Below the pieces are notes generated by a model, which saw only the letters and a list, made by a program, of their open reading frames with translations, was not told the origin of the DNA and ran no database searches. Below are positions 22,470 through 29,642 of a DNA stretch of 64,000 bases, piece after piece. The translations under genes and the position numbers were made by a program. Positions within the stretch are counted from its first letter, which is position 1. Each line of letters starts with the position of its first letter. This DNA comes from a virus (lineage: Duplodnaviria > Heunggongvirae > Uroviricota > Caudoviricetes): IMG/VR virus record IMGVR_UViG_2718218305_000006; one strand, 5' to 3'.

Positions 22470-22661
22470 TTATCCAGCCGGTGTTTCGTTATTCAGGTAC
22501 AGCGATACTTTTTTTTTTACCGGGAGGCATTCACCAGAAATTTTTTGCTCGTCTCTTGCCTGGAGGCAGGATTCTTTACTGGCATAAATTCCGGTAATCA
22601 CATTCTGTGATTCACCCGTTATAAGAAAAACCGTCATCATCAGTGCAAATGCTGAAGTCAT
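22470..22661 (-). CDS. Hypothetical small protein with N-terminal hydrophobic segment
   Basis: 63-aa ORF overlapping the stop of the next gene by 4 nt. Confidence 0.4.
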   Translation of the reverse strand: MTSAFALMMTVFLITGESQNVITGIYASKESCLQARDEQKISGECLPVKKKVSLYLNNETPAG

Positions 22662-24980: not shown

Positions 24981-25082
24981 TTAGCAATTATAACCGTTCA
25001 GTGAACACTAACAATTCCTCGTAGTGTTGACTTATGTTCTCTTTAAGTGAACAATGTTGTGGCTGATTGAATTGGAGGTTGT

Positions 25083-25358
25083 ATGACAGCATTGGACAAG
25101 GCAATAAAGATTGCTGGTGGTATTCGTCCGCTAGGGCGTGCAATAGGGGCTTGGCCGTCTCAAATACACAAATGGGCAAATGAATACAATGGTCGAGTGC
25201 CGACAGGGGAGCGGGTTCGTCAAATTTATATTGCAACTGGGGTGACTCCTCATGAATTGCGACCAGATTTATATCCGAATCCAACCGACGGGTTGCCTGC
25301 TGGAGATAAGGCTAACACACAAAATACACCGGAGTTGATTCATGAAAATCAAGCATGA
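25083..25358 (+). CDS. Cro/YdaS-like HTH regulator
   Basis: 91-aa ORF (…IAGGIRPLGRAIGAWPSQIHKW…) divergent from the repressor. Confidence 0.7.
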   Translation: MTALDKAIKIAGGIRPLGRAIGAWPSQIHKWANEYNGRVPTGERVRQIYIATGVTPHELRPDLYPNPTDGLPAGDKANTQNTPELIHENQA

Positions 25359-25767
25359 ACACATCCGCATGGCGATGAATGCTTGGGCGTATCCGGACGG
25401 TGAGAAAGTACCTGCAGCTGAAATAGCTCGGGCTTATTTCGAACTGGGGATGACGTTCCCGGAACTTTACGACGACAGCCATCCGGAAGCCCTGGCCCGT
25501 AATACCCAGAAAATTTTCCGCTGGGTGGAGAAGGACACGTCTGATGCTATTGAAAAAATTCAGGCGTTGTTACCGGCGATCGAAAAGGCGATGCCGCCTT
25601 TGCTGGTGGCCCGTATGCGCAGTCACAGTTCTGAGTATTACCGGGAGATTGTCGAACGGCGAGATCGGCTGGTGAAGGATGTCGATGATTTTGTTGCGTC
25701 AGCGGTCGTTTTATATGACCAGATAAATCGCGGCGGCCCGGCAGGGAATGCTGTGGTGATGCACTAA
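25342..25767 (+). CDS. YdaT-like (CII-like) regulatory protein
   Basis: 141-aa ORF following the Cro-like gene, Rac-prophage-type gene order. Confidence 0.55.
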   Translation: MKIKHEHIRMAMNAWAYPDGEKVPAAEIARAYFELGMTFPELYDDSHPEALARNTQKIFRWVEKDTSDAIEKIQALLPAIEKAMPPLLVARMRSHSSEYYREIVERRDRLVKDVDDFVASAVVLYDQINRGGPAGNAVVMH

Positions 25768-25789
25768 AAGCACGGTGTTCGGGGGGGTT

Positions 25790-26743
25790 ATGAGCAGCAA
25801 GCTTCATGGTCTTGTCTGGGAAGGGTGCGCCTTCACCGGCATGATCTTATCCAGGGTGGCAGTTATGGCCCGTCTTGCAGACTACAGCAATGACGAGGGC
25901 GTGTCATGGCCTGCTATTGAAACTATCCGGCGTCAGATCGGTGCAAGAAGTGAATCCACCGTTAAATCTGCTATTGCAGAACTGGCGAAAGAGGGCTGGC
26001 TGACGAAGGAAGAGCGTAAGGTCGGTGGGCGTAACGTAAGCAATATCTATCGGCTTAATGTGGAAAAACTTGAAGCAGCTGCAGCGGCGGCGCGTGAGGC
26101 ATATAAACCAAAAAGAAAAATTAGCCTGGCAAAAAATGACCCGTCAAATATTGACCCCTCAACGGTTGGCCCGTCAAATTTTGATGGATCAACTGTTGAT
26201 AAAAAACTGCCGATTAGGGGGGCGATGATTGACCCCGATCCGTCAGTATTAAAACCTGAACCGTCAGATAAAAGATCTTCTTGTCCGGACGTTTCACTGC
26301 CGGACGAAAAACAATCATCACCGGTTGAGCGATTTCTGGAGAAACACCCGGATGCGCATACCTGGAATGTCCCGAAGCGACAGTGGGGAACCCGGGAGGA
26401 TTTGACGTGTGCACAGTGGATCTGGGGACGGGTTGTTGCGTTGTATGAACAGGCCGCCAGTGATGATGGGGAGGTATCACGCCCCAGAGAGCCTAACTGG
26501 ACGACCTGGGCGAATGATGTGCGCATGATGCGTATGCTGGATGGACGTAGTCACCGACAGATTTGTGAAATGTTTGGGCGTGTTCAGCGGGATTCGTTCT
26601 GGGTAAAAAACATCATGAGTCCGGCAAAACTCCGGGAAAAATGGGATGAACTGGTTATTCGCCTGGGGCGTTCGCCCGCGCAGCGTTGCGTGAATCATAT
26701 TTCTGAACCGGATACCGAAATTCCGCCTGGTTTCAGGGGGTAG
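25790..26743 (+). CDS. Replication initiation protein (O-like, N-terminal winged HTH) with internal iterons
   Basis: N-terminal HTH region; the iteron array codes the PSNIDPSTVGPSNFDGSTVD segment; followed by a DnaC-like loader gene. Confidence 0.7.
   Translation: MSSKLHGLVWEGCAFTGMILSRVAVMARLADYSNDEGVSWPAIETIRRQIGARSESTVKSAIAELAKEGWLTKEERKVGGRNVSNIYRLNVEKLEAAAAAAREAYKPKRKISLAKNDPSNIDPSTVGPSNFDGSTVDKKLPIRGAMIDPDPSVLKPEPSDKRSSCPDVSLPDEKQSSPVERFLEKHPDAHTWNVPKRQWGTREDLTCAQWIWGRVVALYEQAASDDGEVSRPREPNWTTWANDVRMMRMLDGRSHRQICEMFGRVQRDSFWVKNIMSPAKLREKWDELVIRLGRSPAQRCVNHISEPDTEIPPGFRG
26138..26285 (+). repeat. Putative replication-origin iterons
   Basis: About four direct repeats of CCGTCA(A/G)(A/T)(A/T)TT(G/A)A-type spaced ~20-25 bp apart inside the initiator gene. 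Confidence 0.5.
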
Positions 26744-26749
26744 CGCACC

Positions 26750-27487
26750 ATGAAAAACATTACGTCAGGTGGTGTTCTGGCAAGAGTCAGCAGATTTGTG
26801 CCGCAGGATGCAATCCCTCCGTACCGTACGGTGGCGGAGTGGCGGGAATGGCAGCTTGCTGAAGGGCGTAAGCGAAGCGAGGAGGTTAATCGTCTGAATC
26901 ATCAGACGCGGGTTGAAAAAATCATTAACCGCTCCGGTATCCAGCCGCTTCACCGGAAGTGTACGTTCGGTAACTACCGGGTGCAGAACGATGGTCAGCG
27001 CCATGCCCTGAGTCAGGCGAAATCCATTGCGGCAGAGCTGGAAGGCGGCTGTACGAATTTTGTTTTCAGTGGCAGGCCTGGCACAGGAAAAAACCACCTG
27101 GCGGCTATTGGCAACCACCTTCTGGCGAAAGGTCGCAGTGTGATTGTGATAACAGTGGCGGATGTGATGCTGGCGTTACATGGCAGCTACGACAACAAAA
27201 ACTCGGGCGAAAAATTTTTGCAGGGATTGTGTGGCGTTGACCTGCTGGTACTGGATGAAATTGGCATGCAACGGGATACGCGTAATGAGCAGGTCACGCT
27301 GAATCAGATTGTTGACCGCAGAACGGCATCGTTACTCAGTGTGGGGATGCTGACAAATCTTAACCATGCAGCGATGAATACACTTCTCGGCGAGCGGGTG
27401 ATGGACCGCATGTCCATGAACGGTGGTCGCTGGGTGACGTTTAACTGGGAGAGCTGGCGTCCGAACGTCAGCCAGCACAGGAACTGA
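26750..27487 (+). CDS. DnaC-like helicase loader (IstB-like AAA+ ATPase)
   Basis: Walker A FSGRPGTGKNHLA, Walker B LLVLDEIG. Confidence 0.85.
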   Translation: MKNITSGGVLARVSRFVPQDAIPPYRTVAEWREWQLAEGRKRSEEVNRLNHQTRVEKIINRSGIQPLHRKCTFGNYRVQNDGQRHALSQAKSIAAELEGGCTNFVFSGRPGTGKNHLAAIGNHLLAKGRSVIVITVADVMLALHGSYDNKNSGEKFLQGLCGVDLLVLDEIGMQRDTRNEQVTLNQIVDRRTASLLSVGMLTNLNHAAMNTLLGERVMDRMSMNGGRWVTFNWESWRPNVSQHRN

Positions 27488-27516
27488 GAAGTAATTTTTA
27501 TCCGGAGGAAGTTTTA

Positions 27517-28287
27517 ATGGAAACCGTATTGCATGCACTGAAAGCGATGGGTAAAGCCAATTCTGTTGAACTGGCGGCGCGGCTTGATATCAGCCGTGAA
27601 GAAGTTCTCAACGAACTGTGGGAACTCAAAAAAAATGGCGTTGTTGATAAAACGGGTCACACCTGGTTTCTGGCTGTCGAAGGTGAATCCCGGGTAACCG
27701 AAGAGCGGCCAGTAAAATCTGAAACACAGGATATGCTGACCGAAGAGGTCGCTCCAAAAGTTAGCGCTAACATGATGATTGAGTTTATCGATCAGGAGGG
27801 GGCTAAAACCTGTGAAGAAATAGCGGGTAAGTTCGGTGTCAGTACTCGCAAGGTTGCTTCCACGCTGGCGGCGGTAACCGCAACGGGGCGGCTGGCACGC
27901 GTTAATCAGAACGGTAGATTTCGTTACTGCATGCCGGGCGATAATTTACCAGCAGAGCCGAAAGCCGCGCTGGTAACGGAAAGTGATGGTAAGGCCTTTC
28001 CTCAGCCAGCAGGTGCTGCGTTACCAGTCCGGGAAGCCGCAACACAGGAAGAAAATAAAACAGAAACTGTGGCGGTCACAGTGCAGTCACAGCCGTTGTT
28101 CACCAGAAAACATCCGGATGGTCTGATTTTACCATCGCTGCATGTGGCTAACCGCGAGCTGCGCCGGGCAAAAGGTCAGGTTCAGAAGTGGGAGCGTGTC
28201 TGCGCCGCGCTGCGGGAGCTGAACAAGCACCGGGATATTGTTCGGCAGATTGTCGATTCATCCGGTCGTATTGTGTCGGAAAAGTGA
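27517..28287 (+). CDS. Hypothetical phage protein with N-terminal winged-helix-like region
   Basis: 256-aa ORF in the nin-like region. Confidence 0.5.
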   Translation: METVLHALKAMGKANSVELAARLDISREEVLNELWELKKNGVVDKTGHTWFLAVEGESRVTEERPVKSETQDMLTEEVAPKVSANMMIEFIDQEGAKTCEEIAGKFGVSTRKVASTLAAVTATGRLARVNQNGRFRYCMPGDNLPAEPKAALVTESDGKAFPQPAGAALPVREAATQEENKTETVAVTVQSQPLFTRKHPDGLILPSLHVANRELRRAKGQVQKWERVCAALRELNKHRDIVRQIVDSSGRIVSEK

Positions 28288-28302
28288 TTGCCGGAGGCGC
28301 TT

Positions 28303-28683
28303 ATGGCGAAACCTTTTACACACGAACAGCGTGAAGAACTGAAGGCCCGAATTATCGGGCTGGTACGCAAAAATGAACGCATGACGATATCACAACTGGA
28401 GAGAGCGACGGGAGCAGGCTGGCATTCAGTCAGACGTTGCCTTGTGGATGTACTGGCTTGTGGCGATTTATACATGCCCGGTAAATACGGTGTTTTTGCA
28501 TCAGAACAGGTGTATCGCGTATGGCGTAAGGCAGCGGAGAAAACAACCGACCAGACATTGATTCGAAAGTTACCAGACGGAGAAATACGCCGCTATGACA
28601 GGCATCAGAACATAATTTGCAGTGAGTGCCGAAATAGCGAAGTTATGCAGCGTGTACTGGCGTTCTGTCAGGGGAATTTTTAG
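28303..28683 (+). CDS. Hypothetical phage protein
   Basis: RBS ggagg 5 nt upstream of ATG 28303; 126 aa. Confidence 0.5.
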   Translation: MAKPFTHEQREELKARIIGLVRKNERMTISQLERATGAGWHSVRRCLVDVLACGDLYMPGKYGVFASEQVYRVWRKAAEKTTDQTLIRKLPDGEIRRYDRHQNIICSECRNSEVMQRVLAFCQGNF

Positions 28684-28755
28684 GAGGTGGTGCTGTGAGT
28701 GAAATTAGCTATCAGGCTTCAATTGCCGCTGGCATTCGCATCAAAGGAGAGGTGC

Positions 28756-29112
28756 ATGGAAATAAAACCAGAAGATGAGTTAAGTAATATTGTTTTATTT
28801 CCGGTAAAAGAGGATGACCCACGTAATCAGGTTAATTTTCTTTATGAGCCATCGGAAAGACCATATTGCCATCACGCCTCTGTCCGGGTTGACGAAAAAG
28901 AGCGTCAGGTCCGCTGTAAAATCTGCGGTGCAGTTGTGGAGCCATTTGACTGGATGCTCTCTGTGGCGAAAAGAGAAACCAGACTGGCAGATGATGTAAG
29001 GCTCTTGCGTCAGGAGGAGCGGGAAAGGCGAAAAAATATAGAAAAGCTAATTCAGATTGAGCGTAACGCGAAAGCGCGGATACGCAGGGCGACAAAATCC
29101 AGAACTGAATAA
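28756..29112 (+). CDS. Hypothetical protein with Cys/His cluster (zinc-ribbon-like) and basic coiled C-terminus
   Basis: RBS aaaggagagg; CHH…CKICG motif. Confidence 0.5.
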   Translation: MEIKPEDELSNIVLFPVKEDDPRNQVNFLYEPSERPYCHHASVRVDEKERQVRCKICGAVVEPFDWMLSVAKRETRLADDVRLLRQEERERRKNIEKLIQIERNAKARIRRATKSRTE

Positions 29113-29151
29113 TTAAATTTAGCTCTGTTAAAAATTTAATCCTTAACCGGA

Positions 29152-29162
29152 GGGGGGGGGGG
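29152..29162 (+). repeat. Homopolymeric G11 tract
   Basis: ccgga-ggggggggggg-agg at the boundary between the GC-rich nin region and the low-GC kinase island. Confidence 0.9.
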
Positions 29163-29209
29163 AGGCGCCCTCAGAACATCAGGAGGCTGTCCGGCAGGGC
29201 GGTAGTTAA

Positions 29210-29383
29210 ATGCGAAAGTTCAAAATAATTATTGAAACGGGAATAGCCGGTGGAGATTTCGAGGATGAATTCGAAGTGGATGATGATGCGACGCCTGATG
29301 AAATACATGACGAAGCAAAAGATATTTTCTTTAACTACTGCAATTACTCATATCACGAAATAAAAGACGAAGAGGAAGAATAA
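29210..29383 (+). CDS. Hypothetical small highly acidic protein (57 aa)
   Basis: ORF MRKFKIIIETGIAGGDFEDEFEVDDDATPDE…KDEEEE; low GC; below the ORF-track length cutoff. Confidence 0.35.
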   Translation: MRKFKIIIETGIAGGDFEDEFEVDDDATPDEIHDEAKDIFFNYCNYSYHEIKDEEEE

Positions 29384-29384
29384 A

Positions 29385-29489
29385 ATGGCTGATTTTGCTT
29401 CAACTAAATATAACGCCAATTTTGAAGAATGGCATGAACTGTTAATGGACTATGTAGAGTTACCGCGGTGGAAGCATGGCGTGATATGA
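29385..29489 (+). CDS. Hypothetical very small protein (34 aa)
   Basis: ATG 2 nt after the previous stop, RBS gaggaaga. Confidence 0.25.
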   Translation: MADFASTKYNANFEEWHELLMDYVELPRWKHGVI

Positions 29490-29642
29490 AGTTGCATAAG
29501 AAGTTGCTTTCTTTATCTGGAAATAATATATCCTCTAACGGGAAAGAAATAGAAAATGGTGACTTTAATGAACCCAACCCCCAATAAAAAGAGGTTGGGA
29601 ATACTATGGTTAAATTAGAGTAAATATCTTGGATATCTAAAA

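Follow-up and report, generated by a model that had tools for sequence, protein, structure and literature searches.

What does an uninterrupted run of eleven guanines do in the early operon of a lambdoid prophage, and does its length matter to the small genes beside it? The run occupies positions 29152-29162 of a 64,000-nucleotide stretch of DNA, hereafter the window, from the Caudoviricetes record IMGVR_UViG_2718218305_000006. We think it likely that this G11 tract is a lineage-specific homopolymer of unstable length, lying in a functionless spacer and neutral for expression, that it matches the target of the insertion sequence (IS) ISEc20, and that it is not the joint at which the neighbouring kinase island was acquired. 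We propose that in one sub-lineage the G-run replaced an ancestral 12 nucleotides (nt), GGGATTTCTGCA, between a vestigial ribosome-binding site and the real one of a small gene encoding a DUF7167 protein. Replication slippage would then add or remove G's, and ISEc20 would use the tract, which reads T-C11-TCCGG on the minus strand, as a landing site.

The feature itself is as follows.

29152-29162, plus strand: G11 homopolymer (C11 on the minus strand), read directly, with length alleles from G6 to G11 in relatives

On the plus strand its immediate context is CCGGA-G11-AGGCGCCCTCAG, and its wider context is TTAACCGGA-G11-AGGCGCCCTCAGAACATCAGGAGG. No other homopolymer in the window is as long, the next being a T10 at 22509, a T9 at 2109 and three G7 runs. 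A G11 or C11 was present in 7 of 100 dinucleotide-preserving shuffles of the window; on composition alone the tract is thus unusual without being extreme, and chance could account for it. The draft contig AAVVKJ010000073.1 (GCA_014439925.1) is 100% identical to window positions 25017-30787 (5.8 kb) and likewise carries G11, and because this assembly is independent, the run is not an artefact of one assembly. Direct reading and this second assembly together confirm the eleven G's reported for these positions in the preliminary description.

Comparison with relatives identifies the G-run as a derived state. GGGATTTCTGCA, or a variant differing by one or two bases, is found in 121 of the 127 loci compared, and it recurs in the more distant phages PhiR42_1 and 813R8 and in strain E66. 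Most matching complete genomes are also of the ancestral type as judged by 147-nt BLAST spans. Such spans can mislead on tract length, and sequences were read wherever possible; in RM12581, for example, the span suggests G8, and the sequence contains G9 together with a 1-nt deletion in the DUF7167 gene. The G-run is limited to one sub-lineage, which is also marked by a variant (CTGTCC-GGCA-GGGCGG) of the hairpin that precedes the DUF7167 start codon. Within it, tracts followed by CA have lengths of G6, G7 and G8 and come from pig and human strains resembling enterotoxigenic Escherichia coli and from one metagenome contig, and G6 followed by CG forms a second sequence type. Tracts followed by AGGCG, with lengths of G8, G9, G10 and G11, occur in Shiga toxin-producing E. 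coli (STEC) of serogroups O157, O103, O45, O121 and O145. Among these, G8 is carried by O157 Balcarce and 28RC1; G9 by O103:H2 12009, O45:H2, O121, O157 YB14-1, O145:H28 RM12581 and others; G10 by the second of two module copies in IMGVR_UViG_2740892372_000013; and G11 by the window and AAVVKJ010000073.1. No complete genome carried G10 or G11. A scan of genome contigs for the tract gave no matches, and a scan of metagenomes gave one contig, with G8+CA. The AGGCG type itself resembles a longer G-run broken by a single A.

Length instability is seen among ten copies of the AGGCG type when the 4281 bases that they share (27485-31765) are compared. Over this span the window and O157 Balcarce_24.2 are separated by one single-nucleotide polymorphism (SNP) and by G11 in the former as against G8 in the latter, and 28RC1 (G8) and O121 WL1277 (G9) have identical flanks; from these two comparisons, G8 arose on two flank haplotypes. 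Three draft genomes that encode exactly the window's DUF1627 protein carry G9, G11 and a tract split by an IS, respectively. Because tract length changes much faster than bases are substituted on near-identical flanks, we infer replication slippage as the cause. The proposal in the preliminary description that the tract is prone to slippage is borne out to this extent: lengths range from G6 to G11 among relatives, and G8, G9 and G11 occur on flanks that differ by 0-1 SNP per 4281 nt. The comparison across related strains that it suggested thus yields a variable rather than an invariant length. Neutral length polymorphism of intergenic mononucleotide simple sequence repeats (SSRs) has reportedly been documented in E. 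coli. The tract resembles such repeats in being non-coding and in varying by 1-3 units on otherwise identical flanks, and differs from them in that the window's 11 units exceed the usual length and in that the tract is also used by a site-specific IS. In IMGVR_UViG_2740892372_000013 the module of zinc-ribbon gene, tract and DUF7167 gene is present twice on the minus strand, at 6025 and 7522, about 1.5 kb apart, with G9 and G10.

The IS-split allele points to a second property of the tract, its match to an ISEc20 target.

29147-29170, minus strand: target of ISEc20 (IS110 family), reading GGGCGCCT-C11-TCCGG, with the insertion in a relative at 29157

A lookup of the window's DUF1627 protein led to contig DAXLXR010000046.1 (GCA_042770555.1), in which the zinc-ribbon gene and the DUF7167 gene are separated by a 1449-bp ISEc20 that encodes a 398-amino-acid DEDD transposase. 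The contig corresponds to window positions 25017-29157, followed by ISEc20, followed by window positions 29157-29337, with both flanks 100% identical. The occupied junctions read CCGGA-GGGGGG-IS-GGGGGG-AGGCG, or C6-IS-C6 in the orientation of the IS.

ISEc20 is present in approximately 1120 of 5426 complete E. coli genomes, and C-runs, in transposase orientation, border nearly every ISEc20-like copy examined. For 24 distinct junction pairs from E. coli and Shigella, the left flank has at least three C's in 22 and the right flank at least four in 18; five of the six right-flank exceptions mimic the left end of the IS, CGTTAC/T. The preference extends to 39 sites of relatives with 73-82% amino acid identity, from Burkholderiales, Actinobacteria and metagenome-assembled genomes, with C-runs on the left at 35 sites and on the right at 33. 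In its sequence the tract matches this target, and it does so in the same strand orientation as the other copies. At another prophage site, where the empty alleles consist purely of C (C8 and C9), the occupied allele has 4+7 C's, and the step from C9 to 4+7 would fit duplication of a 2-nt core. The occupied copy of the window's tract has 12 G's, the empty alleles of the same haplotype have G9 and G11, and G10 is seen once elsewhere; the 12 G's would fit a G10 target plus two. Four further sites disagree with a 2-nt duplication when their occupied copies are set against the common empty alleles. Simple sequence repeats and IS targets, the two kinds of feature that the tract represents, are both familiar; a literature search on ISEc20/ISSfl4 targets found no description of a homopolymer preference in this IS110 subgroup. 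Such a preference would explain the ISEc20 sites in dgcE, yecD, prophage N leaders, and tail-fibre and lysis genes. The ten zinc-ribbon gene contexts sampled showed only the ancestral, tract-free gene spacing and no IS, and a search for the empty version of one further ISEc20 site gave no match.

Some further observations concern the element and its sites. A right flank of CGTTAC/T, similar to the element's own GTTAC..., occurs at about a fifth of ISEc20-like copies, which may be donor-like half-match sites. Contig CCQN01000149.1 (375 kb) of GCA_000753135.1, which has the window haplotype, ends about 70 nt before the tract, possibly at an assembly break caused by poly-G or by an IS. The Rz gene of E. 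coli AR_0013 contains an ISEc20, inserted after GAAGCCCC, that a second IS splits at base 61 of the element. The 61-nt left-end pieces of ISEc20 in Rz genes had been considered as footprints of the element and were rejected, as they reflect an IS interrupted by a second IS.

How might ISEc20 recognize a homopolymer? IS110 elements select their targets with a bridge RNA, as described for IS621 (Durrant et al., 2024; PMC11208160), in which the left target guide (LTG) corresponds to the top-strand left-target sequence and the right target guide (RTG) is complementary to the top-strand right target; the same study places a non-coding RNA of ISEc20/ISSfl4 at the left end. The 227-nt non-coding left-end region of ISEc20 (its 5' untranslated region) contains CUGCCCCCAG...CCGGGGGGUG within a perfect 10-bp stem, with CUGCCCCC and GGGGGG as candidate guide motifs, and an Rfam search of ISEc20 gave no match. 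The CUGCCCCCAG/CCGGGGGGUG stem-loop would fit the LTG/RTG rules for a target consisting of T or G followed by a C-run and is our putative target loop, and we infer that bridge-RNA pairing underlies target choice. As with IS621-type targets, the site is strand-specific and sequence-defined, the 5' non-coding region of the IS holds a stem-enclosed pair of motifs, and the difference between occupied and empty alleles would amount to roughly a 2-nt core. The ISEc20 target differs from these in being a homopolymer whose length is hypermutable; because of this, the C5 and G6 guides would be mutually complementary and their register could slide.

A broader and more tentative idea, which we regard as possible but less than likely, is that this whole IS110 subgroup (ISEc20/ISSfl4 and the relatives with 73-82% identity) uses a bridge RNA with C5/G6 guides that homes to G/C homopolymers of approximately 8-11 nt. 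If this were true, slippage of hypermutable tracts would gate RNA-guided insertion, insertion and loss of ISEc20-type elements might write extra C's and so make or lengthen their own landing pads, and the window's G-run would be both a scar and a reusable landing pad at which insertion interrupts the prophage early operon. Independently of this broader idea, the target preference seen here takes ISEc20-like bridge recombinases to G/C homopolymers, sequences that E. coli has rarely and that mutate readily, and the tract would be a natural example of a target for an RNA-guided recombinase that slippage can switch on and off.

Whether tract length could influence the adjacent genes depends on the anatomy of the spacer.

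28756-29112, plus strand: upstream gene for a 118-amino-acid zinc-ribbon-like protein (phrog_1621; WP_000403785.1 in relatives)
29113-29209, plus strand: non-coding spacer of 97 nt from the zinc-ribbon gene to the DUF7167 gene, inside the rightward early operon of a lambdoid prophage
29181-29212, plus strand: translation start region of the DUF7167 gene, with AGGAGG at 29181-29186, a 7-bp hairpin at 29186-29203 (loop GGCA) and ATG at 29210
29210-29383, plus strand: downstream gene for a 57-amino-acid acidic DUF7167 protein (phrog_1997; Pfam PF23768, E=7e-15)

No open reading frame (ORF) of at least 20 amino acids crosses the tract on either strand, and a consensus scan revealed no promoter-like or terminator-like site at it. 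An intrinsic terminator was likewise not matched there: GAGGG/CCCTC pairing is possible, but it is followed by AGAACATC and not by a U-run. Rfam families are absent from the tract, the only match being sok (31378-31553), 2.2 kb away. The AGGAGG Shine-Dalgarno (SD) sequence and the start codon of the DUF7167 gene are separated by 23 nt in linear sequence, a gap filled by the hairpin from G29186 to T29203, and because both elements lie 3' of the tract, their spacing is unaffected by its length. With its position outside any ORF, promoter, terminator and SD-start interval, we consider changes in tract length most likely to be neutral for expression. The suggestion in the preliminary description that length alters transcription or gene spacing is therefore not supported: in addition to these features of the anatomy, predicted accessibility is flat, with unpaired probabilities across a length series from G3 to G14 constant at 0.60-0.62 for the SD and 0.67 for the AUG.

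It could nonetheless be argued that the tract is a phase-variable switch, in which slippage alters promoter spacing, transcript structure or the translation of the adjacent small genes to give heritable ON and OFF states. In favour of a switch, the tract is long for E. coli, it is polymorphic, and it has been retained by two sister sub-lineages despite a 2-3% divergence of their flanks. In Bordetella pertussis the length of a C-tract in the fim promoter sets expression, as does that of poly-G in the porA and opc promoters and in pgtA-type ORFs of Neisseria. The G11 tract shares with the fim and porA/opc examples a long intergenic G/C run that varies between close strains, but those tracts lie between promoter elements or in ORFs, and G11 lies in neither, 5' of the next SD. 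By the yardsticks used for SSR contingency loci, length polymorphism among close relatives is present and placement in an ORF or promoter is not. Moreover, the best -35/-10 pair spanning the tract reaches 7 of 12 consensus matches at any length from G6 to G13, RNA folding around the tract is no better than that of shuffles on either strand (z -1.1 and -1.5), and the majority of relatives have no tract at all. We therefore regard a switch as improbable. A literature search on poly-G in STEC prophages found nothing. Still less probable is a structural role, in which the antisense C11 would load Rho onto transcripts that read through from the kinase operon, which converges on this region, or a G-quadruplex or R-loop formed by the G-run would impede rightward transcription. 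An intrinsic terminator after the PP2C gene was looked for and none was found, and the antisense RNA over 29083-29202 is rich in C (0.28-0.38, as against 0.16-0.23 for G), yet C exceeds G across the entire antisense region even without the tract, and the island-bearing strain E66 has no tract. As for a quadruplex, G11 just suffices for three G3 blocks, but the canonical arrangement of four G3+ blocks with short loops is absent: the fourth block, the next GGG after the tract (29197-29199), is 34 nt distant, and the G8 and G9 alleles provide fewer blocks than G11 and cannot make three. The tract is thus probably of little regulatory importance, and the story of a phase-variable kinase island falls away with it.

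The remaining possibility raised by its position is that the tract is the joint of the kinase/PP2C moron, the point at which foreign low-GC DNA was spliced in. This is assessed against the island and the gene that it truncates.

29385-29489, plus strand: truncated phrog_519 gene, with the left joint of the kinase island (29471-29474) at its 3' end
29475-31330, minus strand: low-GC island (GC 0.362) containing a PP2C phosphatase gene (29643-30359) and a Ser/Thr kinase gene (30343-31137), with boundaries set by comparison with 813R8 and IMGVR_UViG_2740892372_000013

The preliminary description placed the tract where GC content changes at the edge of the island. There is indeed a drop nearby, from 0.495 (27485-29112) and 0.515 (the spacer) to 0.362 in both the DUF7167 gene and the island; it begins, however, with the DUF7167 gene and not with the island, and DUF7167 is a backbone gene that adjoins the same spacer also in phages without the island. 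That fall from approximately 0.50 to 0.36 is what makes a joint at the tract conceivable, but low-GC backbone accounts for its start, and in BLAST comparisons homology with island-less phages (813R8 and the first module copy of IMGVR_UViG_2740892372_000013) runs through the tract and the DUF7167 gene, ends at 29471-29474 and resumes at approximately 31331. The ORF at 29385-29489 matches phrog_519 over residues 1-26 only, and 813R8 has an intact 58-amino-acid version; this ORF is a truncated phrog_519 gene, ended by the island joint. Tract and island also occur separately, in E66 (island and no tract) and in IMGVR_UViG_2740892372_000013, where the island follows the second module copy only and the first tract copy has no island adjacent. 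Since the island joins the backbone at approximately 29474, 310 nt to the right of the tract, the tract is not the moron joint, a reading that break-point mapping of these alignments refutes and to which we assign almost no probability. The earlier suggestion of a recombination joint retains partial merit in another respect, as the tract lies where two linkers abut and at an ISEc20 site.

These linkers offer an account of what the tract replaced.

29125-29153, plus strand: left conserved intergenic linker, identified by alignment and present as a single copy in the window, ending in a vestigial SD, GGAGG (29149-29153)

In ArgO145 and several Stx2a phages the left linker ends in ...TAATCCTGAACTGGAGG and is followed by TATATTTATG and then by a 70-amino-acid phrog_4659 gene, after which these phages have the same SD-hairpin-ATG arrangement that precedes the DUF7167 gene. 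Across 50 IMG/VR contigs with the phrog_4659 gene, the upstream genes after whose ends the left linker begins are of at least two kinds, and the SD-hairpin also precedes at least three different, unrelated downstream genes in other phages. From these arrangements, the tract sits at the abutment of two conserved intergenic linkers, an empty gene slot, and GGAGG at 29149-29153 is a vestigial ribosome-binding site, the relic of a slot that is occupied in ArgO145-like phages. Neither the left linker nor the hairpin has a second copy within the window. In lambdoid phages the linkers (window 29125-29153 and 29176-29209) flank interchangeable small genes such as phrog_4659, DUF7167 and others, and they look like the points at which cassettes of a small-gene array are exchanged. 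In the modular evolution of lambdoid phages, it is a recognized feature that module junctions carry conserved boundary or linker sequences. The window agrees with this pattern in having short conserved intergenic sequences around interchangeable small genes and a tract at the linker abutment; it departs from it in that the tract lacks conservation and the window's island was exchanged at another point. The locus illustrates how a vestigial gene slot of a phage cassette array decays into simple sequence.

Several observations weigh against our reading of the tract as a slippage-prone, expression-neutral homopolymer that serves as an ISEc20 target. Homopolymer lengths in assemblies are error-prone, especially in long-read assemblies, and some of the differences in allele length could be technical; in one pig-strain record a neighbouring gene is frameshifted. 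Because G9 is common to five serogroups, instability on epidemiological time scales is not extreme. Occupation of this tract by the IS was found in one assembly, with none of the 5426 complete genomes and no IMG/VR contig carrying ISEc20 there. A consistent core and donor-guide assignment was sought from the ISEc20 sequence itself and none was obtained, and the neutrality of length changes is predicted from anatomy and modelled folding. Finally, four other ISEc20 sites have a common empty allele that is poorer in C than its occupied counterpart: AACA+C6 versus CCCC-IS-C6 in dgcE (with the dgcE-type half-site AACACCCCCC), AA+C6 versus C5-IS-C6 in a lambda-like N leader, CCCA+C5/6 versus C5-IS-C6 in a tail-fibre gene, and C5-T-C5 versus C5-IS-C7 or C5-IS-CTC4 in yecD. 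Insertion into pre-existing long runs is therefore not the whole story; judging from these alleles, either the IS hits rare long-run alleles only, or its insertion and loss write C's into the flank.

The second of these options suggests that the tract itself could be a footprint of ISEc20, in which insertion by the ancestral CCC wrote approximately four C's into the left flank, loss of the IS left GTG-C7-TCCGG and slippage expanded the run, making it a better target. On the minus strand, the change from GTG-CAGAAAT-CCC-TCCGG to GTG-C7-TCCGG amounts to four new C's plus the old CCC, and the CA-type tract can be read in the same way, as C4 plus the ancestral CCC. Where the empty allele is C6 after other bases, occupied copies show C4-5 replacing those bases; an IS-free dgcE allele with A+C10 goes beyond what slippage alone would give; and when the IS motif CCGGGGGG is reverse-complemented, it agrees with the ancestral CCCTCCGG at 7 positions out of 8. 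Set against this, strand exchange by IS110 elements is confined to a 2-nt core and excision restores the target (PMC11208160), which leaves the rewriting of flanks without an established mechanism. At this tract the occupied copy has unaltered unique flanks, no ISEc20 was seen at an ancestral-type site in IMG/VR or the sampled assemblies, and a 6-bp deletion (ATTTCT) followed by slippage would explain the origin too. Such a deletion from the ancestral sequence gives GGA-GGGG-CA, a plausible seed for the run. We regard the footprint as a minority possibility, and it is compatible with the reading of the tract as an unstable, neutral homopolymer that matches the ISEc20 target. Other alleles at these sites also vary. 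The chromosomal C6 run of dgcE is an ISEc20 site in Shigella flexneri, and IS-free dgcE frameshift alleles in E. coli comprise AACACCCCTAGCAG in one genome and A+C10 in another. In O157:H7 PV15-279 and E2865 the run in the prophage DUF6645/SASA tail-fibre gene, CCCACCCCC / CCCACCCCCC, varies by one C; the gene is annotated as frameshifted in both strains, and in an IMG/VR prophage the site is occupied by ISEc20.

For practical purposes, the tract is a fast-evolving marker in a prophage common to O157, O103, O45, O121 and O145 STEC, and also a homopolymer source of assembly error. The prophage is a mosaic, with the best complete RefSeq E. coli genome covering only 67% of a 24-kb slice. In annotated relatives the plus-strand order is cro, ydaT, replication genes, DUF1627, DUF977, the 118-amino-acid zinc-ribbon gene and the 57-amino-acid DUF7167 gene, followed by the PP2C phosphatase and Ser/Thr kinase on the opposite strand and then by hok/sok, DUF968 and RusA. 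The island proteins match Pfam PP2C_2 and Pkinase, and their genes overlap by 17 nt; the kinase matches the PADLOC models for the mad6, PD-T4-6 and Stk2 defence systems, and none of the PADLOC models matches the phosphatase. On its left the island is inserted into the phrog_519 gene, and on its right it adjoins hok/sok (sok 31378-31553, hok 31566-31703).

The start region of the DUF7167 gene has features of its own. Hairpins that bridge the spacing between SD and start codon are described for genes 38 and 25 of phage T4, and here the hairpin would bring the SD to within approximately 7 nt of the start codon. In most relatives it reads GCCGCCC-GAAA-GGGCGGT, and it is kept in all eight variants tallied among them, with changes that are mostly C>T (G.U) on the 5' arm and with one variant losing the inner pair. 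In E. coli O145:H28 RM12581, an early 1-nt deletion in the DUF7167 gene, at the equivalent of window position 29221, shortens the annotated protein, and one IMG/VR contig has this deletion as well.

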